Of a DNA stretch of 64,000 bases, positions 33,727-50,168 are shown piece after piece. The position numbers were made by a program, and so were the translations under genes. The notes under the pieces were generated by a model, which worked only from the letters and a program-made list of their open reading frames with translations, had not been told where the DNA came from and did not search any database. This DNA is from Gammaproteobacteria bacterium (GTDB lineage: Bacteria; Pseudomonadota; Gammaproteobacteria; Eutrophobiales; Eutrophobiaceae), in NCBI GenBank assembly GCA_040905045.1, contig JBBDSH010000050.1:7698-71697 (forward strand), in the 5' to 3' direction. Position 1 is the first letter of the stretch. Each line of letters opens with the position of its first letter.

Positions 33727-34137
33727 TCAGCGGATGACGCCGCGGATTTCCCCGGCGCCGGCGGAATCTTCCCGGGCCTCGCCGAAGATCGTCTCCGGTG
33801 TGACCGAGCCTTCCAGGATCTCGCCGTTGGCGGCGGTGGATGTCACGGCGGTACCGCCGGCCGCGATGGCCAGATTCGACGCGGCCACAACGCGGCCCTC
33901 GGCGTCCACCGTTAGCGGGTCGCCCTTGCTGAACGCGCCGCCGGTCTCGAACGGGATTACGCCGCGCATGTTGACGGTGAGGTCCTCGCCGTCGGCCGCA
34001 GGGGGGGGGGCGGCGCCGGCGAAACGCTGGCCGGCGACGGACGCCTGGGCGCCGTCGTAACCGACGGCGCGGTATTGGGTCACCGCGCCGGAGGCGGTGA
34101 AGGTCAGTGCAAGCTGGATCAGTTCCTCGCGCGACAT
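33727..34137 (-). CDS. DUF2190-like head protein (possible decoration/cement protein)
   Basis: 136-aa Gly/Ala-rich protein between the scaffold and capsid genes; it contains a C10 run encoding PPP. Confidence 0.4.
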   Translation of the reverse strand: MSREELIQLALTFTASGAVTQYRAVGYDGAQASVAGQRFAGAAPPPAADGEDLTVNMRGVIPFETGGAFSKGDPLTVDAEGRVVAASNLAIAAGGTAVTSTAANGEILEGSVTPETIFGEAREDSAGAGEIRGVIR

Positions 34138-34139
34138 AA

Positions 34140-35315
34140 TCAGTTACCCCGCTGTTTCGTGACGATGTTGACGGCCGCCTCGTAGTCCACGCCTTCGTGG
34201 GCTTCCTGGTAGGCGAGCGCCCTGTTGTGGATGTCCATCTTTTCCGGGTTGACGCTGTAGCCGGGCGGCAGGTCGTAGTCCTGCGCCACCGCCGTGTCCT
34301 GTTCCGCCGGGCTGCGCTCGGCGTAGTCCACCACCTTCGGCAGCTCCTGCAGGAAATCACGCAGGAAGGTTTTCGGTTCGCGCTTCACCGTCTCGCCGCC
34401 TTCCTTTTCGGCGAACTCGATGACGCCGTCGATGTTGGCCTCGACCGAATCCATGAACTCGATCAGACCCAGCTCCTGCTTGGGCAGAATGCGGCCGTCT
34501 TTGACCAGGTTCTCGACGAACGATGTGATCTCGCTCTTGCGGGTGCGCGCCTTGTCGGCAGCGATGCGTTCTTCGTCTTCCTTGAGTTTCTGTTCGCGCT
34601 CGGCGAACTCCGCCTCTTTGCGCTCTTGCTCGGCTTTCTGTTCGGGTGTCAGTTCCACGGTCTTTTCCTCCGGTGTGGCTTTCGGTGTCGGCTCTGCGTA
34701 CGACGTTGACTCTTTCACCGGCTCGTAGAAATCCGAGTCGGTCATGTAATCGGGGATGATCTTGTCGGCGGTCTCCATGTCTTCCTTGGCGATCAGATAT
34801 TCGCGCATGCGGCGGAACACGCCGGCGATACTGCGCGGGAGAAACGAGTCGGCGAAGGCCGACTCGCTGAATTCAACTTCGATGCATTGATCGTCGCCGG
34901 CGGCGAACGCGGCATCCTTCAGGCCCTTTACGCCGGGCGCCGCCGCGCCCAGGAAGCCCACGTGCTTGAGGTAATACACGCCGGGTTTCGGATTGCTCGG
35001 ATGATTCGGCGGGTAAAAGGAAGCGGATCGTTTCTTGAAGCGGCCGGCGTTGACCATCTCGGCGAACTGCGGCTCCACCTGGTGCGGCTCGGCCTGCAGT
35101 TTGCCGTCCGCGTATTCCAGCGCCTTGATCCAGCCGTACGCCGGTTTGTTATGTTCCGGGTGCCCGACCGTGATCGGCGCCTCGTGCAACTGCGGATCGT
35201 ACGCCTCGGCGCTGGCCTGCAGGTGAGACTCGGAAAACTCCAGCGACCGGCCGGCCATGTCGGTGTGCCGGCCGGCCCGGAAGATTTCCAACAGTTTTCG
35301 CAAAGAGGCGGTCAT
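34140..35315 (-). CDS. Mu I-like head protease/scaffold protein
   Basis: Mu gpI-family features with an acidic/Lys-rich coiled-coil C-terminus (EQKAEQERKEAEFAEREQKLKEDEER). The track ORF extends to 35465, but the start is probably the internal Met at 35313..35315. Confidence 0.55.
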   Translation of the reverse strand: MTASLRKLLEIFRAGRHTDMAGRSLEFSESHLQASAEAYDPQLHEAPITVGHPEHNKPAYGWIKALEYADGKLQAEPHQVEPQFAEMVNAGRFKKRSASFYPPNHPSNPKPGVYYLKHVGFLGAAAPGVKGLKDAAFAAGDDQCIEVEFSESAFADSFLPRSIAGVFRRMREYLIAKEDMETADKIIPDYMTDSDFYEPVKESTSYAEPTPKATPEEKTVELTPEQKAEQERKEAEFAEREQKLKEDEERIAADKARTRKSEITSFVENLVKDGRILPKQELGLIEFMDSVEANIDGVIEFAEKEGGETVKREPKTFLRDFLQELPKVVDYAERSPAEQDTAVAQDYDLPPGYSVNPEKMDIHNRALAYQEAHEGVDYEAAVNIVTKQRGN

Positions 35316-35465
35316 GAGGCTGGCAGTCTGCGCCAGCGATCCTGGGAAAATAAGGGTGACGCGCGTCACCCATAAAGCCTGCCGCGTGGCAGGGCCAGGA
35401 AGCGGCAGGATCAGCAGCAGATGGAAGAAAATAAAAAGCCCGCCGGATGGCGGGCTTGGGATCAA

Positions 35466-35716
35466 GGGTAACTTCTGGACGTGATTAAGTTAGCACGGTC
35501 ATGCGTGGCGCTCAATCATTCCGTCGGGGTGCCCTATATAATGTCATGGCCCGTCCGCCGACCCGGATCGGGGCTGTCTCCGGATCGGCGTCCGATCCGG
35601 GCTTCAAAAATCGCCGGATCGCCATTTAATTTTCCGCGTGTGTTTTTAACTTTTTCCGGGGCTAGCCCTGTAGCCCCGGATCGCACACAGCGAATCTGAG
35701 GCGGCGAGGGGGCGGA
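35466..35716 (-). promoter_or_regulatory. candidate late-promoter/activator region with four CCGGATCG repeats upstream of the structural arm
   Basis: gaCCCGGATCGgggctgtctCCGGATCGgcgtCCGATCCGGgcttcaaaaatcgCCGGATCGcc lies between the I-like gene start and the OMP gene. Confidence 0.3.
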
Positions 35717-36355
35717 TCAGAACTCGAACCGCACGCCGGCGGTAAAGTTATGACTGGCGAACGTGCTGGTGGTGGTGTCGAATTCCGGATCGCTGCTGGA
35801 GATATAACGATAGCGCAGCTCCAGCGTGACCTGTTCCGACACCATGTAACCGATACCGGCGCCGGCGTTCCAGGCAAAGTTCGTGTCCTTGTTGCTGAAG
35901 TCGAGCGGCACGCCCTGCAGGGCGCCATCCGCCTTGATGCGCGCGAAGCCTACACCGGCGCCGACGAACGGCCGGATATTATTGCCGAGATCGAAATCGT
36001 AATACGCGTTCACGAATCCCATCAGCGCAGTGACGTCGCCGGACAATCCGATAGTAGCCGGATCCACGTTCAGTCCCTGCACGTTAATGTTATCGAGATC
36101 GTTCTTCATGTAACTGAACTCGACTTCAGAACGGTACTGATCGCTGCGCAGACCCAGCACGCCGGACGCGGTCAGCCCTTCATCAAAACCGAGATCCACC
36201 TGCACACCGGGCACCGTACTGTCGGTGATCTCCGAGTCTTCCATCATCGCCACGCCGCCGTGCGCGCCGGCATAAATGTCGTAGGCGTGTAGTTGGAAAC
36301 TTGATATTAACAAGCAGCCCGCAACCCAAAACCTCGTATGGTTTTTCTTATTCAT
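35717..36355 (-). CDS. outer-membrane beta-barrel protein (Ail/Lom/OmpX-like moron)
   Basis: Signal peptide, alternating amphipathic beta-strands and a C-terminal aromatic (AGVRFEF). GC is lower than in the neighbours, and the gene sits between the late genes and the repressor. Confidence 0.6.
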   Translation of the reverse strand: MNKKNHTRFWVAGCLLISSFQLHAYDIYAGAHGGVAMMEDSEITDSTVPGVQVDLGFDEGLTASGVLGLRSDQYRSEVEFSYMKNDLDNINVQGLNVDPATIGLSGDVTALMGFVNAYYDFDLGNNIRPFVGAGVGFARIKADGALQGVPLDFSNKDTNFAWNAGAGIGYMVSEQVTLELRYRYISSSDPEFDTTTSTFASHNFTAGVRFEF

Positions 36356-36394
36356 CTCTATCTCCTTTTGTCAAAAAAAATGTATCCATATCAA

Positions 36395-36817
36395 CTATCC
36401 CGCTTTTTTATTTTTGTCTTCTGGTACGAACGCAGTAATGATCTTCTTCACGCGGTCACGATCTTCCGGGGCGAGCCCCCGATAAAGATCGAGGACCGCC
36501 TGCTCCTCCTTGTCAGGTATTTCTGACCGTCCATCTTCGGCCGGCTTATCTGCAACGTAACCGGCTCGATCGCCAGTCAGGATATAGTGCACGTCCGCGC
36601 CCAGTCGGGCAAATGCGATCAAGGCCTCGCCGCCTGGGGTACGTTTGTCCCCTTCATATTTCTTCAGCGTCTCCAGCGGAAGCTTCAATTCCGTCGAAAA
36701 TTGGCGCTGCGAGAGTCCCATTTTTTGACGTAACTCTCTGATTCTATTTCCAATTGTCATAGATACACATCTGTAAGCGGGGTCAGGCTTGACTGGTGCC
36801 CAATTGGGCACTATCAT
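36395..36817 (-). CDS. phage repressor (XRE-family HTH, c-like)
   Basis: HTH IGNRIRELRQKMGLSQRQFSTEL. It is divergent from ner, and the real start may be the internal Met at 36758..36760, because the 16-bp palindrome lies inside the longer ORF. Confidence 0.65.
   Translation of the reverse strand: MIVPNWAPVKPDPAYRCVSMTIGNRIRELRQKMGLSQRQFSTELKLPLETLKKYEGDKRTPGGEALIAFARLGADVHYILTGDRAGYVADKPAEDGRSEIPDKEEQAVLDLYRGLAPEDRDRVKKIITAFVPEDKNKKAG
36796..36811. promoter_or_regulatory. perfect 16-bp palindrome GTGCCCAATTGGGCAC (candidate repressor operator)
   Basis: Located in the divergent c / ner control region. Confidence 0.5.
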
Positions 36818-36853
36818 CCGTTTAAGTTAATTTTTTATCTGAGTATAGACGAA

Positions 36854-37063
36854 GTGCATCCAGCGGACATTAAAGCGGCACTGAAAAAGAACGGGAAAAG
36901 CCAATCTGTGCTGGCAAAGGAACTCGGCGTATCTCCAGCCGCGGTGCATCTCGTCATTGAAGGTCGCACGCACAGCAAGCGCGTCGCGAAAGCCATATCG
37001 CAAATTACGGGTTATTCAATCGATGAGTTGTGGCCGGAACAATATGAGGAGAAGGCCGCATGA
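36854..37063 (+). CDS. ner: Ner-like DNA-binding protein
   Basis: 69 aa, MHPADIKAALKK...LAKELGVSPAAVHLVIEGRTHSKRVAKAISQITG matches the Ner/Nlp family. Confidence 0.75.
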   Translation: MHPADIKAALKKNGKSQSVLAKELGVSPAAVHLVIEGRTHSKRVAKAISQITGYSIDELWPEQYEEKAA

Positions 37064-37896
37064 ATATCCGGCTTTCTATGAGTGACTGGCTGTCTAGGAA
37101 GCTGATATCGATGGCGCAGCTACTCAGTTCGGAGGGCCGGAAAATCCCCTCTGCAATCGAGCAGAAGAGCAGTTCGCGGCAGCCACGTAATATAAGGATC
37201 GGAGACAGGCTCACGCAATATCGAAAGCTGCTGGGATACACACAAGCAGAAGCGGCCTCTGAATTCGGCGTGTCTCGACGGTCGTGGATCAGGTATGAAA
37301 CGGGCACCACAAAACCTGCCAATTCCGTATTAATTCAACTCTCGCGCAACGGCTTAAATCCGGACTGGCTGTACACAGGCAAAGGAGAAGTGCTTCTTTG
37401 TCATCCAACTCGCCAGAAATCCACCGGTGAACGCTCCCGCGCACGAAGGCTTGAACGGATGCGCCGAAGCCTGGCTAAAACATTTGACAGTGATTATTGG
37501 TTCACCCGGAACCGCTTCATCAAGATAACCCTCTACAGCGAACTGCTGGTACGACAACAGACAACAGAAGAATTTTTGAAGGAACTCTCCGTTGCGATAG
37601 GCAGGCGAGTTGAAAACATCGGTGTCGTTATCGATGCGCTCTCCGCCAAGCCGGAATACCGATCATCGAGCGTCACCACCGCTTCAAAAATTAGAAAGTC
37701 GGTGGCGCGCATTCTCAATATCGATTTCGACGCTATCGATTACGACGCTCTCCAGAAGAAAGTCAATTTCGATTCAATCGGCGGCACGTCCAAAGAGGGC
37801 CTGGGATCGTCCACGACTGATCCAGGGCAGTCGGGCGATCCAACGCGACAGAGCCCCGGGCGTGCCGCCGTCCTTTCAACGGAGGGCGACGCATGA
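37060..37896 (+). CDS. XRE-family HTH protein (extra early regulator, low-GC)
   Basis: 278 aa with central HTH QYRKLLGYTQAEAASEFGVSRRSWIRYETG; its ATGA overlaps the ner stop. Confidence 0.45.
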   Translation: MNIRLSMSDWLSRKLISMAQLLSSEGRKIPSAIEQKSSSRQPRNIRIGDRLTQYRKLLGYTQAEAASEFGVSRRSWIRYETGTTKPANSVLIQLSRNGLNPDWLYTGKGEVLLCHPTRQKSTGERSRARRLERMRRSLAKTFDSDYWFTRNRFIKITLYSELLVRQQTTEEFLKELSVAIGRRVENIGVVIDALSAKPEYRSSSVTTASKIRKSVARILNIDFDAIDYDALQKKVNFDSIGGTSKEGLGSSTTDPGQSGDPTRQSPGRAAVLSTEGDA

Positions 37897-37938
37897 AATT
37901 TGACTGGTCCACGCATTATCCGCCCGAGGGCTGGGCAG

Positions 37939-38139
37939 TCAGATCGCGGTCAGGCTCTCGGCGATTGCGCCCAGTGCATCGGCTGCGCCGTCTTCTCCGA
38001 TCCGTTTTAGCTGGTGCGTGGCCCCGGAAAGGTTGCTGAACAGATGATCCATTTCAAGCACACCGTCATCGCTCAGGGTTTTGACCAGGGCCGTGTAGGC
38101 GTAATAGAGCGCCAACGCTCGTTCATTCGTGTCATGCAT
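37939..38139 (-). CDS. small hypothetical protein (antisense-oriented within the early region)
   Basis: 66-aa ORF on the minus strand between the HTH gene and the transposase. Confidence 0.2.
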   Translation of the reverse strand: MHDTNERALALYYAYTALVKTLSDDGVLEMDHLFSNLSGATHQLKRIGEDGAADALGAIAESLTAI

Positions 38140-38228
38140 ATCGGTGGCCTCCCGGCTGGGGTTGGGTTCGTCAGCCTCTCAACTTTACCAGCCGGGCGTG
38201 CCGCCGTCCTTATTCACCGGAGCGGATC

Positions 38229-40406
38229 ATGAGCTGGATAACAACAAAAGAAGCCGCAAGTCTGCTCGGCGTCAATCAACGCACGGTGCAGCTCCGGGCG
38301 CGGCGGGAAGGCTGGCGCAGCCGGCCGCGTATCGGGCGCGGCGGCGGCAGGGAATACCACACCGACGATCTGCCGCTGCCGACATCCCAGCCGGACGATC
38401 GCAAAGAGTCACTGAAACAAACCACGGAACAATCCTTTTCCCTTCGCAATATCGAATCCGGCCTGCGCGACGTACAGGGTTTATCAACGTCGCAGCAACA
38501 ACGATTGAACGCCCGTTTAACCATCGTTCGAACGTGGCAGCAATACCATCGTAACAGCGGCCTGAAACAGGTCGCCTCGCAATACAAATTCGCCGAGCAG
38601 TACAACGCCGGCGAGATCGACATCGACGCGGAGACCCGCGCCGCTTATCCCACCATCAGCCGCGCCTCCCTGGTGCGCTGGAAAACCGAACTAAAGAAAC
38701 ACGGCGTCGCCCGGCTCGCCGGCCAGTACGGCAACCGCAAGGGTCAATCGCTGATCGCATCGCAGCCGGAGGTTGCCGATTACCTGCGCGCTTGCCTGGG
38801 CGGTCCGCACGCGGACATCACCGCGCGCCATCTTTATCGCGGCCTGCGCGCCCGCTTCCACGCGCGCGACGATATCCGCATGCCGTCACCGCGATCGGTC
38901 GAGCGCTGGCTCGATGCCTGGCGTCGCGACAACGCCGAGCTGCACGCCAGTCTCAGTAATCCGGATCGCTGGAAAAACGAATACATGGTCGCGCACGGAT
39001 CGTTGTCCGAATCCATCAGCGCACCGAATCAACTCTGGGAACTGGACGCCACGCCGGCGGACGTCATGCTGGCAGACGGCCGGCATTCATTGAGCGGCGC
39101 CATCGATGTCGGCACGCGCCGATTCAAATTATTAGTGACACCCACACCGCGCGCCGCCGCCGTCGCCGCGCTCATGCGCTGGACGCTGCTGCACTGGGGC
39201 GTGCCGGACACCTGCAAGCTGGACAACGGCAAGGAATACGTCGGGCATTACACGATGCGCATTTTACACGCGCTGGAGATCACGCCGGATGTCTGCCCGC
39301 CGTTCCAGCCCTGGATGAAGCCGCACATCGAACGCGCCTTCCGAACCTTCTCCCACGATCTGATCGAGCTGCTGCCCAACTACATCGGCCACAACGTCGC
39401 CGACCGCAAGGCCATCGAGGCGCGCCGCAGTTTCGCCGATCGGCTTATGAAGAAAAACGAAGTGGTAGAGATCAACATGACCGCCGCCGAGCTGCAGGCG
39501 TTCTGCGATCGCTGGTGCGAATCCATCTACGAACATCAGGCGCACGACGGCCTGCACGGCAAGACGCCGTTCCAGGTCGCCAGCGAGTGGACCGGCGAGC
39601 TGCGCCGCATCCGCGACGAACGCACTCTGGACATGCTGCTGGCCGAGGCGCCGGACAATCACGGCAAGCGCACGGTGCACAAGAAAGGCATCCGCATCAA
39701 GTGGCCGCAGCAGTCGCATCACCACTGGTACATCGCGCCGGAGCTGGCGCTGCACGTTCGCCGGCAGGTCACCGTTCTTTACGACCCGGCCGGCGACATG
39801 GGCCGCGTCTACGTGTTCGGCGACGATGGCTTCCTGTGCATCGCTGAATGCCCGGAACTCACCGGCATCGATCGCCGCGACTACGCGATGGCGGCGAAGC
39901 GCCTGCAGCGCGAGACAGTGCAGGCGCGCCGCCGCGAAATGAAAAAGGCAGCGAAGGATCTGGACGTCGGCAACATCGCCGGCGAGATCCTGGAACACGC
40001 CGAGCGCGAGCACGGCAACGTAACCCTATTCCCGCGCGCCGGGCAGGCGCACGAATCCGCATTTCTCACTGAAGCCGGCGAGGCCATCCGCGCGGCCGAC
40101 GATCACGACACGCCTGCCCAGGGCGCGCCCGTCTCCGAGGAATCCCATCAGCGCGTCGCGGCGATGCTCGCCGAAGAAGACGAACAGCCGATGGAGACGC
40201 CGGAACAACGATTCACGAAAGCACTTTCCTTACTGGACGGAACGCTGCAGGGCACGCCCGCCGATTACGAATGGCTGGCCATGTATCAAACCTCATCCGA
40301 ATTCCGGGGCCGCTACCTGACGTGGCGGACTCTCGGTGCGGGCGCGGACCGGGACGACATCGATGGCGATCCCTGGCTGCGCCCGGTGCATCAGCAAACG
40401 GGGTAA
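38229..40406 (+). CDS. Mu-type DDE transposase (MuA-like)
   Basis: 725 aa with an N-terminal HTH (MSWITTKEAASLLGVNQRTVQ), a central rve/DDE core (WELDATPADVML...) and a C-terminal Mu-transposase-like region. Confidence 0.8.
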   Translation: MSWITTKEAASLLGVNQRTVQLRARREGWRSRPRIGRGGGREYHTDDLPLPTSQPDDRKESLKQTTEQSFSLRNIESGLRDVQGLSTSQQQRLNARLTIVRTWQQYHRNSGLKQVASQYKFAEQYNAGEIDIDAETRAAYPTISRASLVRWKTELKKHGVARLAGQYGNRKGQSLIASQPEVADYLRACLGGPHADITARHLYRGLRARFHARDDIRMPSPRSVERWLDAWRRDNAELHASLSNPDRWKNEYMVAHGSLSESISAPNQLWELDATPADVMLADGRHSLSGAIDVGTRRFKLLVTPTPRAAAVAALMRWTLLHWGVPDTCKLDNGKEYVGHYTMRILHALEITPDVCPPFQPWMKPHIERAFRTFSHDLIELLPNYIGHNVADRKAIEARRSFADRLMKKNEVVEINMTAAELQAFCDRWCESIYEHQAHDGLHGKTPFQVASEWTGELRRIRDERTLDMLLAEAPDNHGKRTVHKKGIRIKWPQQSHHHWYIAPELALHVRRQVTVLYDPAGDMGRVYVFGDDGFLCIAECPELTGIDRRDYAMAAKRLQRETVQARRREMKKAAKDLDVGNIAGEILEHAEREHGNVTLFPRAGQAHESAFLTEAGEAIRAADDHDTPAQGAPVSEESHQRVAAMLAEEDEQPMETPEQRFTKALSLLDGTLQGTPADYEWLAMYQTSSEFRGRYLTWRTLGAGADRDDIDGDPWLRPVHQQTG

Positions 40407-40432
40407 CCCAACCACTTAATGGAGGCATCGTT

Positions 40433-41221
40433 ATGAAATACAAAATCTGCCACACGAAGAATGTCGCCCGCCTCGCTGAGGCGGGCGATGCGTTGATATC
40501 GCGCCAGCCGGGGATGCCGGGCATGGGATTGCTGTCCGGTCCCACCGGCTACGGCAAGACGGTGTCCGTCGCCTGGTACGCCATCCAGTGCCGGGGCGTG
40601 TTCGTCCGCGCGATGGCGAACTGGAGTCCGAGCGCCATGCTTTCCTCAATACTGCGCGAGCTGGACGTCGAGATGAACGGCACCAACGCCGACAAAACCA
40701 CGCGCATCATCGAACTGCTGGCACAACATCAACGCCCGGTGTTCATCGACGAAGCCGATTACCTGGTCCGCTCGCAAATGATGATGGAAACATTGCGCGA
40801 TCTGCATGACCTTTCCAACGTGCCGGTGATCCTCGTCGGCGAGGAACACATGCATCGCAAGCTGCAGGGCTACACGCGACTGACCCGGCGCCTGGCGCAG
40901 CACGTGGAGTTCACCGGCGCGGACATCGAGGACGCGCGGATCCTCGCCGATCAGTTGTCCGAAGTGACGATCGCCGACGACTTGTTGGGCGATCTACATT
41001 ACGCCGCCTGCGCCAAGAAGCGCGGCAGCAACGAGGCCATCGGCGGCGCCTCGGCCGGATTGATCGTGGTCGGCCTCTCGCGCATCGAGCAGCTCGCGCG
41101 CAACAAGGGGATCAAGACCGTCGCCGCGAAGGACTGGCCGCGCGGTGCGTCATTCTTCGAGGGCGCCGCGCCCATGCCCGGCCCGGCCGGCGATGTGGTC
41201 AAACTGCGGAGCGGCAAATGA
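40433..41221 (+). CDS. transposition ATPase (MuB-like, AAA+)
   Basis: Walker A GPTGYGKT, Walker B VFIDEAD, GGAGG RBS; the start is ATG 40433 rather than the track ORF 40271. Confidence 0.75.
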   Translation: MKYKICHTKNVARLAEAGDALISRQPGMPGMGLLSGPTGYGKTVSVAWYAIQCRGVFVRAMANWSPSAMLSSILRELDVEMNGTNADKTTRIIELLAQHQRPVFIDEADYLVRSQMMMETLRDLHDLSNVPVILVGEEHMHRKLQGYTRLTRRLAQHVEFTGADIEDARILADQLSEVTIADDLLGDLHYAACAKKRGSNEAIGGASAGLIVVGLSRIEQLARNKGIKTVAAKDWPRGASFFEGAAPMPGPAGDVVKLRSGK

Positions 41222-41475
41222 TCCGGCACGTCGCCCGGCAGGACACGCGCAGGACCGCACGCGATCGCATCTGGCACTCCGTGCGGATCCTGCGCCGCTT
41301 CACCTACGCCGACGTGGCGACAGCGGCGGACGCGGGGTACGACGACGTGAAGACCTACCTCGGCACGCTGCGCCGCGTCGGCGTGATCCGGATCACGGGC
41401 CGCGCCGCCACCGGGCGGCGCGGGCCCCCTAAGCCCCCCCCCCCCCCCCCCCCCCGGGGCCGCGTACGCCGGTGA
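41218..41475 (+). CDS. hypothetical early protein containing a poly-Pro stretch encoded by a C22 tract
   Basis: 85 aa whose ATGA overlaps the MuB stop; the C run at 41434..41455 encodes PKPPPPPPPRG. Confidence 0.4.
   Translation: MIRHVARQDTRRTARDRIWHSVRILRRFTYADVATAADAGYDDVKTYLGTLRRVGVIRITGRAATGRRGPPKPPPPPPPRGRVRR
41434..41455 (+). repeat. 22-nt poly-C homopolymer followed by GGGG
   Basis: aagCCCCCCCCCCCCCCCCCCCCCCggggcc. Confidence 0.9.
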
Positions 41476-41580
41476 TGAACCTGGTCCGCGACCTCGGCCC
41501 GCTGACACCGCGTCGTAAGCGCGGCGGCAAGGCTGTCTACGATCCCAACGCGCACGAAGTCCTGGAGGCCGACGATGGAT
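41475..41580 (+). CDS. small ORF (35 aa) bridging the poly-C gene and the next HTH gene by overlapping stop/start codons
   Basis: MNLVRDLGPLTPRRKRGGKAVYDPNAHEVLEADDG; it has TGATG and ATGGATGA overlaps with its neighbours. Confidence 0.25.
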
Positions 41581-41898
41581 GAATGGATCAAGGTGCTCCA
41601 GCGCGAGTGCAAGCGCAGCAGCCAGAACCGCGTCGCCCAGGAGTTGGGCGTGTCGACCTCGGTCATTAACCAGTGTTTGAAAGGCACTTACAGCGGCCGT
41701 GTAAAGCGCATTCAAAGCCTGGTCGAAGGGCGCTACATGAAGGCCACCGTCGAGTGCCCGGTGATCGGCGAGCTGCCGAAGGATCGCTGCATGGATTTTC
41801 AGGCACGGCGTAACAACTTTGCCGCCACCAACCCGGTACGCGTGCAGCTGCACCAGGCCTGCCCGACGTGCCCCAACTTTCAGGGGGGAGAATCATGA
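41575..41898 (+). CDS. HTH plus Cys-rich DNA-binding protein (putative early/middle regulator)
   Basis: SQNRVAQELGVSTSVINQCLKG HTH with a C-terminal CPV...C...CPTC cluster. Confidence 0.4.
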   Translation: MDEWIKVLQRECKRSSQNRVAQELGVSTSVINQCLKGTYSGRVKRIQSLVEGRYMKATVECPVIGELPKDRCMDFQARRNNFAATNPVRVQLHQACPTCPNFQGGES

Positions 41899-42164
41899 GA
41901 GTACTGACACGCAATCATTCCGGCCGCACGCCGGCGGGAGAATACAGTCACCAGGTCGCGACAATGGAAGCCGCGCACATACCGATGACCTCGTATCTCT
42001 GCCCGGCCGATCGCTGCGGTTTCATCATCAAGTGCCAGCGGCCGGTGCATCAGGAATACACCGACGCGTTGACCGAATGCCCGGACTGCGGCTGCCAGCA
42101 TTTCCGCCTTGTCACCCGGGACGGCCGCGTTGAAACCGAGCTGCTGTACGGAGGCATCGCATGA
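41895..42164 (+). CDS. zinc-finger phage protein
   Basis: Cys pairs CPADRC and CPDCGC; the probable start is MRVLTRN at 41895. Confidence 0.35.
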   Translation: MRVLTRNHSGRTPAGEYSHQVATMEAAHIPMTSYLCPADRCGFIIKCQRPVHQEYTDALTECPDCGCQHFRLVTRDGRVETELLYGGIA

Positions 42165-42565
42165 GGCCCGCCTGGGAACGCGATATCGGCGATCCCATCC
42201 TCGATCGCTGGTGCGCGATTTACCACGCCAATCCATCCCTGCGGGTGCGCGGCCTCACGCTCGAGCAGTTCCTCTACGATCCGGAAAAGCGCCTGCAGGA
42301 AACCGTGTTCAATCACGTCCAGCCCGGCGGCGGCACTGACTTCCGGCCGCTGCTGCCGCGCCAGCTTGCTGTCCTGCATGACCTGGCCGAAGAAGAGGCA
42401 GGCCAGCTCTCCCCGGACGCCCTGGCTGCCTATCTCGACGAGCTCGAAGCGCAGCTCGTGCCGGAACCGGATTGCCGGCTCAAAGCCGGCGCCTGGGTGC
42501 AGCCGCTGCATCACCACCGCTACGACGAAAGCCACGACCGCGATCACAGGAGGATCAAGCGATGA
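42161..42565 (+). CDS. hypothetical phage protein
   Basis: 134-aa ORF, translationally coupled. Confidence 0.35.
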   Translation: MRPAWERDIGDPILDRWCAIYHANPSLRVRGLTLEQFLYDPEKRLQETVFNHVQPGGGTDFRPLLPRQLAVLHDLAEEEAGQLSPDALAAYLDELEAQLVPEPDCRLKAGAWVQPLHHHRYDESHDRDHRRIKR

Positions 42566-42792
42566 GCCTGACCAACACACAGATCGAGTTGCTGCGCGTC
42601 GTCGGCGACGGCAATTACTTCTACCCGGTCCACGCCGATGAAGTGGCGGAGCTGAAGGAACTCCAGCGCCAAGGCTACGTCATCGTCCGCGATAACCCGC
42701 ACCCGCCGCCCGGCACGGAAGACATGCCGCCCATCGCCTTCGCGCGGCTTACACAGCAGGGCCGTTATGCCGCGGCCGGGAGCGCCTCATGA
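42562..42792 (+). CDS. hypothetical phage protein
   Basis: 76 aa from ATG 42562 (MSLTNTQIELLRVVGDGNYFYPVH). Confidence 0.3.
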   Translation: MSLTNTQIELLRVVGDGNYFYPVHADEVAELKELQRQGYVIVRDNPHPPPGTEDMPPIAFARLTQQGRYAAAGSAS

Positions 42793-43472
42793 ACCCCGTC
42801 CACGAACAGATCCTCGCCATCATCGATCGCGAGCCGCGCGGCCTGAACGCCAGGGAAGTCTTCGAGCGCGCCTCTCTCTGCACCGACGCCGAACAATGCA
42901 GCAAGGCGCTGTATCACCTGATGGACCAGGGCGAGATCGTCCGGCACGGCAACCAGTACTACCCCGCCGGCACGCCGGCGCCGGCAACCGATTCATCCGA
43001 TCGAAAGGAGGGCAACGCCATGAGCATAGAGATCAAGGGCAAGAAGCAACGGCAGATTTACGACACTCTTAAGAGGCCCATGACGGCCAACCAGATCGCC
43101 GGCGTTACCTTTATGACTGTCGCGCAAATCCAGGCGCAGATCAGCGTCCTCAAAAAGAAGGGGCTCGTCGCCTCCGAGACGCGCGATGGCCGCACGTTCT
43201 ACCTGCGCCGCGATACGGACGGAACAGTCGCGCCGACAGCGACGACAACCGCCAAAAAGGCGGCGAAGAAAAAGCCCGGCCGCATGCCCGCCGCGCAGCC
43301 GAACGGCGACGATCCCGTCGAGCGGCTGCTCGCGCTCAACGTCGAGGCCGCGCAGTCGGCGATGGATGAATACATCACCTCGGTCTGCGATCCGGACACC
43401 CTTGCCCTGTTCCGTGAGCAGCGCGACCACGCGCGCAGCTGCCTCGACCAGTACCGGGAGAAGCGGTCATGA
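42789..43472 (+). CDS. tandem winged-helix DNA-binding protein
   Basis: Two wH-like segments (LAIIDREPRGLNAREVFE..., IYDTLKRPMTANQIAGVTFMTVAQIQAQISVLKKKGLV). Confidence 0.35.
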   Translation: MNPVHEQILAIIDREPRGLNAREVFERASLCTDAEQCSKALYHLMDQGEIVRHGNQYYPAGTPAPATDSSDRKEGNAMSIEIKGKKQRQIYDTLKRPMTANQIAGVTFMTVAQIQAQISVLKKKGLVASETRDGRTFYLRRDTDGTVAPTATTTAKKAAKKKPGRMPAAQPNGDDPVERLLALNVEAAQSAMDEYITSVCDPDTLALFREQRDHARSCLDQYREKRS

Positions 43473-43723
43473 GTCACACGCTTATTGTCGGTTTCACTAT
43501 TGATGATGATGTCCTGGCGGGCATCGATCGTCTGATCGGTACCGGCTTCGGTACCACGCGCGGCGAAGTCATAGGCAACGTGCTCGCCCACGCCCTGCGC
43601 CGCAACGAATCCATCGGCCGCTGCGAGATCTGCGGCGTCGTCGATCACCATCTCATCGAGGGCGCCTGTCCGCTGTGTCGGGTGAAATACGATTTCGATG
43701 AGCCGGAGGTAAATCATGGCTGA
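43469..43723 (+). CDS. small CopG/RHH-like plus zinc-ribbon protein
   Basis: 84 aa with CEICG...CPLC. Confidence 0.3.
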   Translation: MSHTLIVGFTIDDDVLAGIDRLIGTGFGTTRGEVIGNVLAHALRRNESIGRCEICGVVDHHLIEGACPLCRVKYDFDEPEVNHG

Positions 43724-44057
43724 CATCAACCGCGACACCGTCCTTACCGCCCTGCGCCGGCACATCGGCAAACGCAACGGCCTCTCCGCCCGCAAGCTGG
43801 TACGCGAGATCAAAGGGCCGGACGCCACCGAGCGCGACGAACGGATACTGCGGTTCGTCATCGTCGAGCTGCGCAACGAGGGCTACCACATCGGCGCGCA
43901 CCCGCGCTGCGGCTACTTCATCTGCGAGACCGACGCCGAACTGAACGAAACCTGCCTGTACCTGCACGACCGCGCCATGACCACGCTCACGCAGATCAGC
44001 GCCATGAAGAACATCTCGCTGCCCGATCTCAAAGGGCAGCTCAAACTGCCCACATAA
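43716..44057 (+). CDS. hypothetical phage protein
   Basis: 113-aa ORF. Confidence 0.3.
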   Translation: MADINRDTVLTALRRHIGKRNGLSARKLVREIKGPDATERDERILRFVIVELRNEGYHIGAHPRCGYFICETDAELNETCLYLHDRAMTTLTQISAMKNISLPDLKGQLKLPT

Positions 44058-44069
44058 AAGGAGGGAACC

Positions 44070-44603
44070 ATGCGCGACATGAACGACATCGAAATCCTGG
44101 CCGAGGAATATTCCAAGGCCCACGACGCCCTGGCCGACAAGGTCAGCCAGGCCAACGCCGAGCTGCAGGCGGTGAAACGAAAATACCGCCACGAACTGAA
44201 AAGCCTGGCCAGCAACGCCGCCAACACCAAGGCGGATCTCATCGCCGCCATCGAGGAATCGCGCGAGCTGTTCAGGAAACCAAAGACGCGCACCTTCCAC
44301 GGCATCAAGGTCGGCCTGCGCAAAGCGAAAGGAAAACTGAAGTGGACCGATGCGGAGAAAGTCGTCAAGGCCATCAAGCGGGTGTACGACGATCAGATCG
44401 GCACGCTGATCAAAACCACGGAGAAACCGAACAAGGACGCCCTGGAGAAGCTGCCGGCGGCGGAACTGAAAAAGCTCGGCATCACCGTCGAGGATAGCGG
44501 CGACCAGGTGGTCGCCAACCCGGCCGAGGGCGAGATCGACAAGATGGTCGACGCGCTGCTTGAAGGCATGGAACAACAGGAAGAAGAAAGCGACGCCGCG
44601 TGA
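44070..44603 (+). CDS. gam: host-nuclease inhibitor Gam-like protein
   Basis: 177 aa with a coiled-coil N-terminus and Mu Gam-like architecture; it sits in the semi-essential early region. Confidence 0.4.
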   Translation: MRDMNDIEILAEEYSKAHDALADKVSQANAELQAVKRKYRHELKSLASNAANTKADLIAAIEESRELFRKPKTRTFHGIKVGLRKAKGKLKWTDAEKVVKAIKRVYDDQIGTLIKTTEKPNKDALEKLPAAELKKLGITVEDSGDQVVANPAEGEIDKMVDALLEGMEQQEEESDAA

Positions 44604-44926
44604 GCAACTCTCTACTCGAACTCATATTCCTGATTGTGCTCACCGCGCTGCTTGCGTTCTGCGCGTGGCGCGTGGCCAACGAACCGTTACTGGAGGTGAT
44701 CACCGTGTCGGATGAAAAACAGCAATACATGAAGGCAGCGGACGGCAGCCCGATCAAAACCGGCCCCGTCTGGTGTTTCGATGCAGCCAGCCTCGAGGAA
44801 GCGCTGGCGGAGTGGAAAAGGGACGAGATCGTGGGCGCCGAGAAGATTGTCCGCGACTTCCTCCATTCCGACACAGCGCGCGCTCACAAGCTGATCGTCG
44901 AGGTCAAGAAAAAGGAGGGGCAGTGA
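44600..44926 (+). CDS. small membrane protein
   Basis: N-terminal TM helix (LLELIFLIVLTALLAFCAW). Confidence 0.35.
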   Translation: MSNSLLELIFLIVLTALLAFCAWRVANEPLLEVITVSDEKQQYMKAADGSPIKTGPVWCFDAASLEEALAEWKRDEIVGAEKIVRDFLHSDTARAHKLIVEVKKKEGQ

Positions 44927-45345
44927 TGATCGAGAAAGCGGAAGCCATCGTTCCCGGCCCGCTGTATCCGGATCTGTTCGACGGCGAGTCGCCGATCTGG
45001 CAGCAGGGCGAGGCGGTCTGTCTCGGCTGCGGCTGCACGGATTCGAACCCTTGTCGCTTCCCGAATTTCTCGAACTACAGCCGCATGGAATCCTGCGCCT
45101 GGGTTTATGTGCGTTACGACATCGGCATCGGTGCCTGCAGTCAATGCGAGTTTTATGCGTGGCTGGTGGAGAACTGGGACGCCGCCACGGCCCACCGCTC
45201 AGGTCCCTGCCAGCGCTGCCGCCGGCCTAATTCGAAAGTCTTTATCGTCGCCGACTCGACCGTCGTTGGTCGCATCGCCGTTCAGATATGCCAGTGGTGC
45301 TGGATAGGGCCGGAGTTATGGTGCTGGATAGGGCCGGAGTTATGA
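44926..45345 (+). CDS. Cys-rich hypothetical protein with duplicated C-terminus
   Basis: Start is probably ATG 44926 (MIEKAEA...). The C-terminus WCWIGPELWCWIGPEL is produced by the 24-bp tandem duplication. Confidence 0.35.
   Translation: MIEKAEAIVPGPLYPDLFDGESPIWQQGEAVCLGCGCTDSNPCRFPNFSNYSRMESCAWVYVRYDIGIGACSQCEFYAWLVENWDAATAHRSGPCQRCRRPNSKVFIVADSTVVGRIAVQICQWCWIGPELWCWIGPEL
45296..45343 (+). repeat. perfect 24-bp tandem duplication (ggtgctggatagggccggagttat x2) spanning a stop/start junction
   Basis: Two identical units at 45296..45319 and 45320..45343. Confidence 0.9.
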
Positions 45346-45536
45346 ATATCAATCGCAGCGCCCGCGTCAACATGGACGGCAACATCGAGGAGACGATCAC
45401 GATCACACGCACGCCGGAGGAATACCTGCGTGAGGCACACGAGGTCTACGACTACCTGATGGCCTATCGCGGCAAACCCGCCGCGCAACGGCCGCCGGCA
45501 TTGGGGAACAAGAATAATGGCAAAGTCAGTCAGTAA
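45342..45536 (+). CDS. hypothetical phage protein
   Basis: 65 aa from ATG 45342 (MNINRSARVNMDGNIEE). Confidence 0.3.
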   Translation: MNINRSARVNMDGNIEETITITRTPEEYLREAHEVYDYLMAYRGKPAAQRPPALGNKNNGKVSQ

Positions 45537-46023
45537 AAACGGTTCGCGCCGTGACGATTATGAAACGCCCTGGGCGGTGGTGCGCTGGCTGGAAGCGCGG
45601 TTCGGCGCGTTCGATCTCGATCCGTGCTGCAGTCGAAGCACGAAAAAAGCGCCGCGATATATCAGTGAGCAAGGCAACGGCCTGCTGCGGAGATGGTCGG
45701 GCAACGTGTTCATGAACCCGCCCTGGTCGCAGCCGTTGCAATCGCTGTTCCTCTATATGGCCAGGACGGAAGTCAGAACAGGTCATGCCGATCAGGTGGT
45801 CGGACTGATCCCTTCCTGCAACATGGACACCATCGCCTGGCACGACGAGATCCTGAATTGCGGCGCCCACGAACTCATCATCGTGCGCGGCCGCATCCAC
45901 TTTCTGCTGGACGGCGAGCCGCGCCCGAACAGTTCCGTGCCGACCGCGTTCCCGATCTGGCGAGGGAAGCGTGCGCCCAGGTCGCCGAAAATTTTTACCG
46001 TCAGAGCGAGCGACCTGCGATGA
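45517..46023 (+). CDS. phage DNA N6-adenine methyltransferase (Dam-like)
   Basis: DYETPWAVVRWLEARFGAFDLDPCCS with the catalytic NPPW motif (FMNPPWS). Confidence 0.7.
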   Translation: MAKSVSKNGSRRDDYETPWAVVRWLEARFGAFDLDPCCSRSTKKAPRYISEQGNGLLRRWSGNVFMNPPWSQPLQSLFLYMARTEVRTGHADQVVGLIPSCNMDTIAWHDEILNCGAHELIIVRGRIHFLLDGEPRPNSSVPTAFPIWRGKRAPRSPKIFTVRASDLR

Positions 46024-46472
46024 CCTGCCGCGCCACCGTCGATCAACGCAAGGCCGAGCTGGGCAAGATCCACATCGCCAAGAAGCAGCTCGACATGGAC
46101 GATGAAACGTATCGGGACATGTTGTTCACCATCGCGCGTGTGCGATCCGCTGCGGACCTGGACGCCCAGGGCCGGCAGGACGTACTGCGCCACCTGCGTG
46201 CCTGCGGCTTCCGGGGCAAGCCGGCGCGGCCGCGCCACCATCCCGGCGCGCCGCACAACATCGATAGCGACGTGCGCGGCCCGATGCTGAAAAAGATCGA
46301 GGCCTATCTCGCCGAGGCCAAACGGCCCTGGTCCTACGTCGACGGCATGGCGCAGCACATGTTCCACGTGGATCGCGTTGCCATGTGCGGCCCGCAGCAG
46401 CTGCGTAAAATCATCGCCGCCCTTGATTACGACGCGCGACGGCACGGCCGGTACCGGGGAGCAAAATCCTGA
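46021..46472 (+). CDS. GemA/Mu gp16-like regulatory protein (DUF1018)
   Basis: Start is probably ATG 46021; LGKIHIAKKQLDMDDETYRDMLF is typical of the family. Confidence 0.55.
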
Positions 46473-46723
46473 TGGCCGTCTACGTGGACAACGCACAGAT
46501 CCCGTTTCGGCGCATGAAGATGTGCCACATGATTGCCGACAGCCTGGACGAATTGCACAGGATGGCGGAGCGGATCGGGCTGAGACGTCGGTGGTTTCAG
46601 GATGGCGGCAGCTTCCCGCACTATGACGTCTGCCTCACTAAACGCGACATGGCCATCAGCTATGGCGCCGTTCCGGTCGAGCGCAGGGAGCTGGTCAGGA
46701 TCATGCGGGAGCTGCGTGCATGA
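46472..46723 (+). CDS. DUF4031-family protein
   Basis: MAVYVDNAQIPFRRMKMCHMIADSLDELHRMAERIGLRRRWFQ. Confidence 0.5.
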   Translation: MAVYVDNAQIPFRRMKMCHMIADSLDELHRMAERIGLRRRWFQDGGSFPHYDVCLTKRDMAISYGAVPVERRELVRIMRELRA

Positions 46724-47298
46724 ATATCAGCTGCCCCAACTGCGCGCTCACCTTTCCCTTGATCGCCGGCGTCAACGACGCCGACGCGCGCAAGTTCGCG
46801 GCCGTTATGGGTGAGCTGCCGTCGCCGGTTACGCGCCCGTTAATCGAATATTTACAGCTCTTTAAACCGCCTAAATCCGGCCTGCGCTGGAAGAAGATGC
46901 TGTCCGTCACCTGCGACATCGCCGGGGAAATCATCGCCGGCGAGATCCGTTACGACCGGCGCACGCTGCCGGCCGGCGTCGAGCAGTGGGCGGCCGGCAT
47001 GCAGGACATGGCCGAGCGCCGCGACAAGCTGTCGCTGCCGCTCACCAGCAACGGCTACCTGCGCAAGATCGTCTTCGGCCTGGCGGACAAGGCCCAGGGC
47101 GAGGCCGAGCGCGAACGCGAGGAACGGGTGCGCAGCGGCCGCCGGACGGAGAATACGACGCCGGCGCCGGACCGCAGCGCGATCAACAACGAGATCCGAT
47201 CGCTGCAGCGGCTGCTGGAACACGCGCCGAACGCCGCGCGGCCGTCGCTGGAAAAGCAGATCGCCGAACTGAAAACACGACTGGGGGAGGTGGACTGA
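46720..47298 (+). CDS. hypothetical phage protein with an N-terminal CxxC
   Basis: 192 aa, MNISCPNCALTF. Confidence 0.35.
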   Translation: MNISCPNCALTFPLIAGVNDADARKFAAVMGELPSPVTRPLIEYLQLFKPPKSGLRWKKMLSVTCDIAGEIIAGEIRYDRRTLPAGVEQWAAGMQDMAERRDKLSLPLTSNGYLRKIVFGLADKAQGEAEREREERVRSGRRTENTTPAPDRSAINNEIRSLQRLLEHAPNAARPSLEKQIAELKTRLGEVD

Positions 47299-47486
47299 TG
47301 TATTCCTTTTACACGGATATCCACGAGGGCGCGAGGCGCCTCACTATCCGGGTCCGTCGCGGCTGGCTGTATCGCCTTCTGACCGGCCAGGAAGAAACCA
47401 CCGTCGCGGAGATTTATCTGCCCCGCAAAGACTGTTTTGCGTTATCCAACGCGCTCCATAAACTCGGCGACAAGAGGGTGGCATGA
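47298..47486 (+). CDS. small hypothetical phage protein
   Basis: 62 aa from ATG 47298 (MYSFYTDIHEG). Confidence 0.25.
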   Translation: MYSFYTDIHEGARRLTIRVRRGWLYRLLTGQEETTVAEIYLPRKDCFALSNALHKLGDKRVA

Positions 47487-47884
47487 TCGCTGTTACGGAA
47501 ATCGACGACGATCTGCTGCCGGACTCTTTGAAACCGATTGCGGATCTCATCGGCCTGCCGGCGACCATCAGCCTGGTGGAATCCTACGGCGGCGTGCGGA
47601 TATATATCCCGCGGAGTCCCGGTGAGGATCACCCGCTGGTGCAGCGCATCGGCCTCGAGGCCGCCGAGTCACTGGCGCGGATCTACGACGGTGAGCCGGT
47701 GGAATTACCGATGGCCTCGGCCGCGCTGCGCGACGCTCGCGACAGGGAACTTCTGCGCCGTGCCGATGAGGGCTGCAGCATCAATGCACTGGCGCAGGAG
47801 TTCGGCCTGTCCCGCCGCCAGGTCTTCCGCATCCTGTCACGACTTCGTCGCCTGAACCCGGGTGACGCGCGTCACCCTGATTAA
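47483..47884 (+). CDS. mor: Mor-family transcriptional activator (middle/late operon regulator)
   Basis: C-terminal HTH NALAQEFGLSRRQVFRILSR and a Mor-like N-terminus. Confidence 0.65.
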   Translation: MIAVTEIDDDLLPDSLKPIADLIGLPATISLVESYGGVRIYIPRSPGEDHPLVQRIGLEAAESLARIYDGEPVELPMASAALRDARDRELLRRADEGCSINALAQEFGLSRRQVFRILSRLRRLNPGDARHPD

Positions 47885-47912
47885 TTTTCCCCCGGGCGTC
47901 TATCGTGGCGCC

Positions 47913-48494
47913 ATGTCCAGTCAAACATTCGATCGACTCGCCGCACCCTGGATCCTGCGCAGGGATGTGGAGGGCGGTTTCTCCGACCATCGTAACGATC
48001 GCGGCGGCGCCACGAATTTCGGTATCTCCATTCATTTGATGGAGTTGCTGCCGGACGGCAACGACGACGGCTATCTCGACGGTGACATCAACAAGGACGG
48101 CGTCATTGATATCGAGGACATTCACGCCCTGGACGACGATCGCGCCCTGGATATTTACTACCGTTATTTCTGGCGGCCGAACCGCTGCGAGGATCTGCCG
48201 CCGGCCGTCGGCCTGTGTCTCTTCGACGGCCTGGTCAATCACCAGCCGAACCCCGCGCGCCGTTTGCTGCAGGAAGGTCTGGAGGTGTTGGCCGACGGCA
48301 AGGTCGGCCCGATCACGATCGGCGCCGCGCACAAGATCAGTCCGGACTACTTCCTGCCGAACTACCTTTCCCACCGCGCGCGGTTCTACACCGACATCGT
48401 CCGTGCGGATACATCGCAGTCCACGTTCCTGCGCGGCTGGTTAAAGCGGATGTTCCTGCTGCAGCAATTCATTATGAAGGAGATCAAACCATGA
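47913..48494 (+). CDS. endolysin (GH108 N-terminal domain plus peptidoglycan-binding domain) with an EF-hand-like insertion
   Basis: EGGFSDHRNDRGGATNFGIS matches the GH108 motif; it contains the loop DGDINKDGVIDIED. Confidence 0.65.
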   Translation: MSSQTFDRLAAPWILRRDVEGGFSDHRNDRGGATNFGISIHLMELLPDGNDDGYLDGDINKDGVIDIEDIHALDDDRALDIYYRYFWRPNRCEDLPPAVGLCLFDGLVNHQPNPARRLLQEGLEVLADGKVGPITIGAAHKISPDYFLPNYLSHRARFYTDIVRADTSQSTFLRGWLKRMFLLQQFIMKEIKP

Positions 48495-48925
48495 GAGTCA
48501 TTTTATCCATTGTATTTGTCGCGTTGCTGGCCGGTTGCAGCACTTACGCCGGCAAAAGCAAGCTGCGCGATCATGCGAACCTCGAAGATTATAACCCGCA
48601 GAATTTCCAGGGATGCACCGTCGGCCAGTACAAAATCCCGGATATTGCGACCCGCGAAACGGGCGACACTGATAATAAGGGGCTGGCTCCCGGCGCCACG
48701 ATCACCTGGTGGGATTGCAAAGACAAGGCACACGTCAGCGGCAAGATGGATTTGACGGGTGACGGTAAGCCGGACTTTGAATACAGGGCCGACGATGTGG
48801 ACGGCTCAACAGCCGCCAAGATACGCGCCGATCTCGAAGCGCGGTTTGCCGAGGCCGGCGTGGAAGGCGCCGGCAAGGCAGCCTGTCTCGCGATGGCCAG
48901 CATGGGCATTCCGTGTAGAGACTGA
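48491..48925 (+). CDS. lysis-cassette lipoprotein (o-spanin or unimolecular spanin candidate)
   Basis: Signal peptide plus lipobox LLAGCS; it overlaps the endolysin stop by 4 bp. Confidence 0.45.
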   Translation: MRVILSIVFVALLAGCSTYAGKSKLRDHANLEDYNPQNFQGCTVGQYKIPDIATRETGDTDNKGLAPGATITWWDCKDKAHVSGKMDLTGDGKPDFEYRADDVDGSTAAKIRADLEARFAEAGVEGAGKAACLAMASMGIPCRD

Positions 48926-48928
48926 TCT

Positions 48929-49300
48929 GTGCCGGAAACCCGCGACGGCCTCGCCTGCCCGCAATCGTTCCTCGACGCGCCGGATGAACTCCGGCGCCAG
49001 GTGTGTAACGGCTGCGGGTCGGCGCAGGCGAAGTTCGATTTCATTCCGGACACGGTCTGGTTTCTGCCGATCCGGAAAGCCTGCGACATTCATGACTGGA
49101 TGTACGCACAAGGCCGGGACATCGAGGACAAACGCCAGGCCGATCGCGTGTTCCTCAACAACATGCTGCGGCTGGTCGAACGCGAGCGCGGCATCGTCGG
49201 CCGGCTGCTGAAACCGCTGCGCCGCCGGCGGGCGCTGAAGTATTACGAGGCGGTGAACGCCTTCGGCGGGCCGGCCTTCTGGTCGGGCAAGAATGGATGA
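48929..49300 (+). CDS. hypothetical phage protein in the lysis region
   Basis: 123 aa with a GTG start. Confidence 0.3.
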   Translation: MPETRDGLACPQSFLDAPDELRRQVCNGCGSAQAKFDFIPDTVWFLPIRKACDIHDWMYAQGRDIEDKRQADRVFLNNMLRLVERERGIVGRLLKPLRRRRALKYYEAVNAFGGPAFWSGKNG

Positions 49301-49502
49301 AGCCGATCACGCGCAGCGCTGGGAAGAACGGGAGCGCGCATTATCACTGGGCGCGGTGCTCGGCGCCGCGACCGAAGAGCACGTCATCATCGACGGAGAG
49401 GTAGTCTGTATGGACTGTAGTACGCCGCTGCCGCAAGAGCGTTTGAAAGCACACCCGCGTGCACTACGGTGCGTGCCGTGTCAACAGAACCGGGAGGCCT
49501 GA
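49293..49502 (+). CDS. TraR/DksA-family C4 zinc-finger protein
   Basis: CMDCSTPLPQERLKAHPRALRCVPCQ. Confidence 0.6.
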   Translation: MDEADHAQRWEERERALSLGAVLGAATEEHVIIDGEVVCMDCSTPLPQERLKAHPRALRCVPCQQNREA

Positions 49503-49867
49503 TGCTGGAAGCTGACCTTAACAACATGATCGAGATCGCCAAATTTTTTTGGATGATCACCATCTCCATCGCCTCCGCCGGCGCCTGGATCTACGCCTGG
49601 TTGAGTCAGAAGCGGTCGGCGACGCTGGATCGCGTCGAGGCCTCCGAGCGCCTGCTGAATGAAATGGCGCATCGGCTGACCTCGCTGGAAAAGGACGTGA
49701 TGCACGGCCCGACGCACAACGACATCCAGGAGCTGCACGGCCGCATCACCGATTTACAGAGCAGCCTCGATAGATTGATCGGCGGTATCGACGCCTGGGG
49801 CGATACCTACAAGGCCATGAACGAGCAGCTGATCAATATCAACAGTTACCTGCGGGAGCACAAGTAA
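49502..49867 (+). CDS. membrane protein with coiled-coil (DUF2730-like; holin or i-spanin candidate)
   Basis: Start is probably ATG 49502; it has a TM helix (FFWMITISIASAGAWIYAWL) followed by a coiled-coil. Confidence 0.4.
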   Translation: MLEADLNNMIEIAKFFWMITISIASAGAWIYAWLSQKRSATLDRVEASERLLNEMAHRLTSLEKDVMHGPTHNDIQELHGRITDLQSSLDRLIGGIDAWGDTYKAMNEQLININSYLREHK

Positions 49868-49869
49868 TC

Positions 49870-50166: not shown

Positions 50167-50168
50167 CG

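Follow-up and report, generated by a model that had tools for sequence, protein, structure and literature searches.

The 22-nt C homopolymer in the early operon of a Mu-like transposable prophage is probably an error private to the MAG assembly in which it was found, and not a feature of the phage. The initial annotation had interpreted this tract as a possible phase-variable switch on the early operon. However, the tract is part of an insert that is missing from an otherwise identical assembly of the same sample, therefore an error is more likely than a genetic switch. The initial annotation had also mentioned, as an alternative, that the tract length might be a homopolymer sequencing artefact, which came close to this conclusion; doubt falls, however, on the entire 30-nt insert and not just on the tract length.

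The C22 tract and the gene split by it

In the window, that is, the whole stretch of 64,000 nucleotides that was analysed, 22 consecutive C residues were read directly in the deposited sequence at 41434–41455, followed by GGGG at 41456–41459, exactly as first described. Calculated from the base composition (about 31% C), approximately 7e-7 C or G runs of at least 22 are expected in 64 kb; the length of the tract is far above chance, and the runner-up C run of the window consists of 6 residues. Besides C22, the only G/C run of at least 8 in the window is a G10 at 34001–34010. The early operon around the tract contains the following features:

36395–36817, minus strand: repressor
Ner-like gene, in the same early operon
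38229–40406: MuA (MEX2524460.1)
40433–41221, plus strand: MuB-like AAA+ transposition ATPase (AAA_22, TniB; a 262-aa gene call on the Logan contig), whose stop overlaps the split gene
41218–41582, plus strand: one interrupted winged-helix gene, phrog_2030 (from homologues, alignments, profile match and AF2 model)
41434–41455, plus strand (G22 on the minus strand): C22 homopolymer, read directly
41575–41898, plus strand: 107-aa HTH gene (MEX2524462.1), beginning within the last bases of the split gene
44070–44603: Gam

The 85-aa ORF at 41218–41475 begins in an ATGA sharing bases with the MuB stop, its TGA overlaps the GTG/ATG (41472/41475) that starts a 36/35-aa ORF, and the end of the latter at 41582 reaches past the ATG (41575) with which the 107-aa HTH gene starts. 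When the coordinates were checked, this geometry agreed with the earlier description, and so did the predicted effects of tract length. A +1 change (C23) joins the 85-aa and 35-aa ORFs into a full-length product, likewise C20 and C26, while the other tract lengths compared truncate it, and a −1 change shifts the frame, C21 (as well as C24) giving an out-of-frame product of approximately 99 aa. The tract is thus a long simple repeat within an ORF where unit changes alter the frame of expression, and it is far above the length threshold of slippage. The mechanics supposed in the initial annotation, namely a tract lying in coding sequence and long enough to slip, were right. The G22 on the opposite strand could in principle form a G-quadruplex, a question that becomes moot if the tract is not real.

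The assumption that did not hold was that the two ORFs are separate, translationally coupled genes. When the C23-fused translation was used as a query, one protein was found, P0001, with a length of 109 aa. This is the intact form of the gene, split into 85-aa and 36-aa ORFs in the window copy, and it reads ...GRAATGRRGPRTPVMNLV..., lacking the PKPPPPPPPPG segment. A HMMER search of 1.84 billion representatives yielded 894 homologues, each of which matched residues ~10–105 in one piece; tandem two-domain proteins make up about half of this family. Alignments were made from 18 and from 46 single-domain homologues, and the best 150 of the 894 were scanned for proline runs. Conserved residues flank the tract position on both sides (W19 and R23 before it, L77, G82, P83, P86, D97 and N99 after it). 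The wing segment, from the recognition helix to the next strand, has 17–23 residues with a mode of 20 in the 46 aligned homologues, and it would reach 33 aa with C23. None of these 46 proteins carries an insert at the tract position, no proline run of at least 4 occurs in the best 150 of the 894, and the homologues compared run through the site without any tract.

P0001 matched the phrog_2030 profile "transcriptional regulator" over residues 7–107 (E 7e-18). Its AlphaFold (AF2) model is a winged helix (pLDDT 88.6), in which the wing loop is formed by residues 63–72 and the tract position falls on the wing tip, and the best Foldseek matches of the model were ROK/MarR-type wHTH domains. A homologue without the tract is found in Shewanella phage vB_SspS_MuM16-1 (p06, QYW06195.1), directly after the MuB ATPase. 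The whole-domain profile match, the position after MuB and the predicted wHTH fold all identify the gene as phrog_2030. Considering the homologues uninterrupted across the site, the synteny and the modelled fold, the "85-aa" and "35-aa" ORFs are to be regarded as the halves of one ordinary early gene of this family, broken by a frameshift. The 85-aa product was absent from a collection of 15 billion proteins, and no product of tract lengths C18–C27 was found in public protein data. In the NCBI annotation a single accession lies between MuA (MEX2524460.1) and the 107-aa HTH protein (MEX2524462.1), presumably that of MuB (MEX2524461 by numbering), and no protein is annotated between this and MEX2524462. 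The MAG contig to which the window belongs is 129,062 bp long.

The same phage in a second assembly

Comparison with the Logan assembly of run SRR27977661 defined the insert and a second anomaly of the MAG:

41427–41456, plus strand: 30-nt insert CCCTAAG + C22 + G, absent from Logan contig SRR27977661_72350 (BLAST and alignment)
41422–41426, plus strand: GGGCC, left copy of a 5-nt direct repeat of which the Logan contig has one copy
41457–41461, plus strand: right copy of the same repeat (BLAST and alignment)
34001–34010: G10 replacing TCGTGCGCGG, same length (comparison with Logan contig SRR27977661_729571)

Contig SRR27977661_72350 (20,936 bp) encodes P0001 intact. It is 100.000% identical to the window at 34007–41426 and 41457–54977, and it lacks 41427–41456 together with one GGGCC copy, which appears as a 35-column gap over 20.9 kb. 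The two BLAST HSPs overlap at 7416–7420 of the Logan contig, which is the shared GGGCC. Although GGGCC is present on both sides of the insert, it is weak as a target-site duplication because the G residues of its right copy merge directly into the G/C run.

Host genes of the MAG (tolB, pal, cpoB and queC) were found on other contigs of SRR27977661 with 1 SNP in 3.9 kb, therefore both assemblies represent the same population and probably derive from the same reads. The SNP, at 58074 in cpoB (A/G, MAG versus Logan contig SRR27977661_154653), is the only other discrepancy in the ~27 kb compared base by base. Since junction-spanning 31-mers require reads that contain them, the reads of SRR27977661 must include the native allele without the insert. 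Only two tract states were seen between the sibling genomes, C22 and no insert at all. With P0001 as query, no related locus was found in the genome contigs or viral contigs searched, blastn of the tract region against phages gave no match, and scanning metagenomes with the upstream flank produced a single match, by chance. As no relatives were found, there is no second copy of this phage outside the MAG and SRR27977661 in the databases searched.

The G10 at 34001–34010 lies in the cement-protein gene (33727–34137, minus strand), where it changes AAAHDAA to AAPPPAA. It differs from TCGTGCGCGG by 5 mismatches (2 T>G and 3 C>G), and we know of no mutational process that gives such a same-length replacement. 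Both Logan contigs end within a few bases of G10, which suggests poor or conflicting k-mer support at this point. G10 is probably a second assembly or sequencing error in the same assembly. Some assemblers are said to encode N as G, which would account for G10, a point on which the present argument does not rely. A same-length overwrite by "dark cycles" was also considered for both sites; it fits G10 but not C22, after which the sequence resumes at the same place and not 22–30 nt further on. The motif GGCGGCGC, shared by the G10 and C22 sites, is uninformative, occurring 25 times in the window.

Origin of the insert

Runs of exactly C21, C22 and C23 were present in at least 120, 110 and 100 IMG/VR contigs, respectively. 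The possibility that C22 represents k+1 of a k=21 de Bruijn self-loop was rejected, since there was no spike, that is, no excess of runs of exactly 22, among the IMG/VR matches listed; the tract length is therefore not a k-mer signature. Among the retrieved IMG/VR loci, 236 of 358 runs of 20–26 C/G were located within 150 nt of a contig end, and many of the internal ones sit in C-rich junk or at C(n)G(n) junctions. Judging from the clustering at contig ends, long G/C runs in metagenome assemblies are mostly technical. CCCTAAG followed by poly-C had 0 matches in IMG/VR and 12 in GTDB genomes, 11 of them in MAGs, 4 at contig ends and all in unrelated contexts. Seven of the GTDB matches were read: two were C-rich junk at a contig end and one stood beside an N gap. 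Without a control set this distribution is uninformative, and no common element was seen. To our knowledge, CCCTAAG matches no common adapter sequence, and a literature search on the SRR27977661 accession and on poly-G assembly artefacts found nothing specific.

Among the IMG/VR matches, seven unrelated viral contigs contain several copies each of the unit ...gtgccaacc..ttggcac...gct-C(20-26)-G(8-27)-(g)tatcccc(t)tgggatacccc..., the G block of which is interrupted in some copies. Either one phage group has a genuine C(n)G(n) repeat of this form, or the unit is an assembly artefact that recurs.

The insert in the MAG adjoins the following structure:

41400–41423: perfect 10-bp all-GC hairpin CCGCGCCGCC-ACCG-GGCGGCGCGG (folding and stem scan)

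The hairpin ends 3 nt before the insert (centroid −23 kcal/mol, z −2.4) and is the only all-GC one of the three perfect stems of at least 10 bp in the 64 kb. C22 reads as G on the minus strand, whose reads would enter the hairpin just past two GGC motifs, and G10 follows an inverted repeat (33973–33993) and a GGC on the plus strand, where this run reads G. In two-colour Illumina chemistry, the lack of signal is called as G. Consecutive Illumina miscalls begin at inverted repeats and GGC, T>G and C<->G miscalls dominate in high-GC genomes, and such sequence-specific miscalls, which reflect dephasing, disturb assembly (Nakamura et al., 2011, PMC3141275). A trigger of this kind, an inverted repeat with GGC, lies beside both anomalies of the MAG, the errors in G10 are toward G in the read direction, and both C22 insert and G10 are missing from the other assembly of the same run or population.

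Short reads of the minus strand would thus enter the all-GC hairpin just after the GGC motifs and lose phase or signal, the affected reads would be called as a G-rich stretch, and the assembler would have retained this erroneous path as the 30-nt insert with the 5-nt repeat. The same technical process would account for G10. The platform and the assembler of the MAG, as well as the exact read-level event, are what we infer here. An assembly error is in accordance with the family-typical form of the intact gene and with the error-trigger contexts of both anomalies. Against it counts that net sequence was added, with the locus resuming cleanly behind it and a 5-nt direct repeat, like a real DNA molecule, and that the insert does not resemble the classic poly-G read tail. 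In addition, no technical source was found for CCCTAAG, and the native path is solid in the same run, yet the MAG assembler would have preferred an erroneous one.

Because of these weak points, a real and recent gene-breaking insertion, present in a part of the phage or lysogen population, retains an appreciable share of the probability, although it is clearly the less likely explanation. It would be accidental, not an evolved switch. The foot of the hairpin would have been the site of a break or stall, repaired with ~30 nt of filler and a 5-bp duplication, and the wHTH gene would have been knocked out, with C22 out of frame. As a newborn hypermutable site, the tract would slip at a very high rate, and DNA or RNA-polymerase slippage would restore the full-length protein in some genomes or transcripts, with an 11–13-aa Pro-rich loop at the wing tip. 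The clean return to the locus and the flanking 5-nt direct repeat speak for such an event, and a 5-bp duplication was made by the integration of the host phage itself (GGACG, 16528–16532 and 54948–54952). The adjoining hairpin is strong, and hairpins are fragile in vivo too. Furthermore, the insert lies at the tip of wing loop 63–72 in a model of high confidence, a place that may tolerate additional residues, C20, C23 and C26 restore the frame, and the SNP at 58074 shows that there is some genuine heterogeneity in the sample.

On the other side, we know of no bacterial process that adds 22 untemplated C residues, and the insert has neither TG...CA ends nor similarity to the phage ends. The 5-nt repeat consists partly of just the G residues beside the G/C run, no product of C18–C27 appears in public protein data, and the Logan assembly resolved the site to the native path. 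Moreover, G10 in the same assembly cannot be a mutation, therefore a shared technical cause is indicated for the two anomalies. A product of Mu-type transposition was rejected as the source, as CCCTAAG-C22-G has no TG...CA termini and no ACAGATGGWTTGAGATC-like transposase-binding repeats.

A more specific form of insertion can be imagined, in which the foot of the GC hairpin suffered a staggered break and template-independent synthesis of ~22 dC/dG filled it, a single step that would give a regulator gene a hypermutable tract and bring a contingency locus into being; the polymerase would be a repair polymerase or a reverse transcriptase, as the phage carries a diversity-generating retroelement (DGR). 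The DGR of this phage recognises its own target through a GC-rich segment and a hairpin, and the insert site is similarly laid out on the minus strand, a likeness of layout alone. We consider this scenario very improbable. If the insert were real, it would capture a rarely seen moment, the de novo origin of a homopolymer tract at a hairpin of a replicating transposable phage.

The evolved contingency locus proposed initially, in which the tract length would switch the early-operon wHTH gene on and off, is even less credible. The tract is indeed frame-sensitive and well beyond the slippage threshold, and the genes of the operon overlap and are probably translationally coupled. Nevertheless, the same run also contains the identical phage with no tract at all, and no homologue examined has one, the syntenic gene of Shewanella phage MuM16-1 included, neither an insert nor a proline run having been found in the 46 aligned and the best 150 homologues, respectively. 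In the ON form, a wing of tightly conserved length would be extended by a 12-aa insert, and the tract arrived within a composite insert, not by growth from a pre-existing run. The claim of a phase-variable switch on the early operon was thus not borne out. Programmed recoding, by which ribosomal frameshifting or transcriptional slippage on the C run would produce the full-length protein by design, is the least plausible of all. Long homopolymers do cause RNA-polymerase slippage, and the frames are set so that a +1 shift fuses the two halves, but neither a slippery run nor a split gene is found in any homologue, and the native allele is a plain uninterrupted ORF. Even taken together, an evolved contingency locus and a recoding site have hardly any probability.

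If the assembly error is the true explanation, 21 kb of prophage in the MAG contain no fewer than two homopolymer errors, and through one of them an intact gene came to look like two translationally coupled ORFs with a "phase-variable" tract. When MAGs are screened for contingency loci, pseudogenes or G-quadruplexes, long G/C runs need to be checked against the reads.

The prophage and comparison with known systems

The prophage is complete, and its exact limits are 16533–54947. Its ends read 5′-TGTAACGCG...GATCACA-3′, with repeated ACAGATGGWTTGAGATC-like motifs near both, and it is flanked by the 5-bp target duplication GGACG (16528–16532 and 54948–54952). It sits between tolQ/tolR and tolA/tolB/pal/cpoB, where it interrupted a MITE-like host repeat of ~200 nt, the halves of which are found at 16450–16532 and 54953–55071. 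This repeat has terminal inverted repeats (TGTTCCGAATTCCAGTACAGTT), and an intact second copy is present at 59744–59941, between a queE-like gene and queC; the joined halves align with the intact copy end to end. The inverted repeat TGTTCCGAATTCCAGTACAGTT had been considered for the phage ends, which was rejected as it is the terminal repeat of the interrupted host element.

A complete DGR occupies 17050–20080 on the minus strand. It consists of an Mtd-like target gene (18740–20080) with the VR at 18754–18876, a TR at 18179–18301, which is 90% identical to the VR and differs from it at TR adenines exclusively, a small ORF in the Avd position (18313–18681) and the reverse transcriptase (17050–18033). 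An 8-bp GC hairpin, GGCAGCGC-TACC-GCGCTGCC, is located just past the VR at 18721–18740. The prophage also contains a tRNA-Met (CAT) at 32158–32233 on the minus strand, between the capsid gene and gp36, and a Logan contig ends at the edge of this tRNA gene.

The gene order is odd for a Mu-like phage. The protease, cement, capsid and tail genes and the DGR run leftward from 35465, the block from the repressor to Mu F runs rightward from 36395, and the phage end follows directly after Mu F. In the closest sequenced relative, Chromohalobacter phage YPCBV-1 (OP380511.1), the order is c, A, B ... F, G, protease ... tail, DGR. Compared with YPCBV-1, the segment from c to F stands reversed with respect to both the late genes and the phage ends, and gene G is apparently absent. 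Two junctions, protease–OMP–repressor and Mu F with the phage end, are seen independently in the Logan contig as well. A gene of the OMP_b-brl/Opacity family (35717–36355, minus strand), coding for an outer-membrane beta-barrel of 212 aa, lies exactly where the late block adjoins the repressor and may be a moron gained at the inversion breakpoint.

Like the HTH genes that follow MuB in Mu-like phages, the split gene is located directly after the MuB ATPase and has a predicted winged-helix fold; it differs in being interrupted in the window copy, and the function of the family is a predicted one. The insert itself resembles the footprint of Mu-type transposition in that it is flanked by a 5-nt direct repeat and lies within a Mu-like prophage showing a 5-bp duplication, but it is only 30 nt long and lacks the TG...CA and the ACAGATGGWTTGAGATC-like repeats of true ends. 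With the simple-sequence contingency loci of Neisseria, Haemophilus, Campylobacter and Bordetella, the site shares a long G/C homopolymer in coding sequence, where changes of ±1 shift the frame. In contrast to these loci, neither the orthologues nor the sibling genome has a tract, no length series was seen, and C22 came inside a composite insert. Functional phase-variable poly-G/C tracts are typically about 8–17 long, and C22 is much longer. The remaining comparison is that with the Illumina sequence-specific or "dark G" errors. The published errors are runs of miscalls, whereas the C22 site is a 30-nt net insertion. The likeness consists in that both anomalies are G runs on one strand, downstream of GGC and at inverted repeats, that the changes at G10 are T>G and C>G and contigs break there, and that both anomalies are missing from another assembly of the same run.
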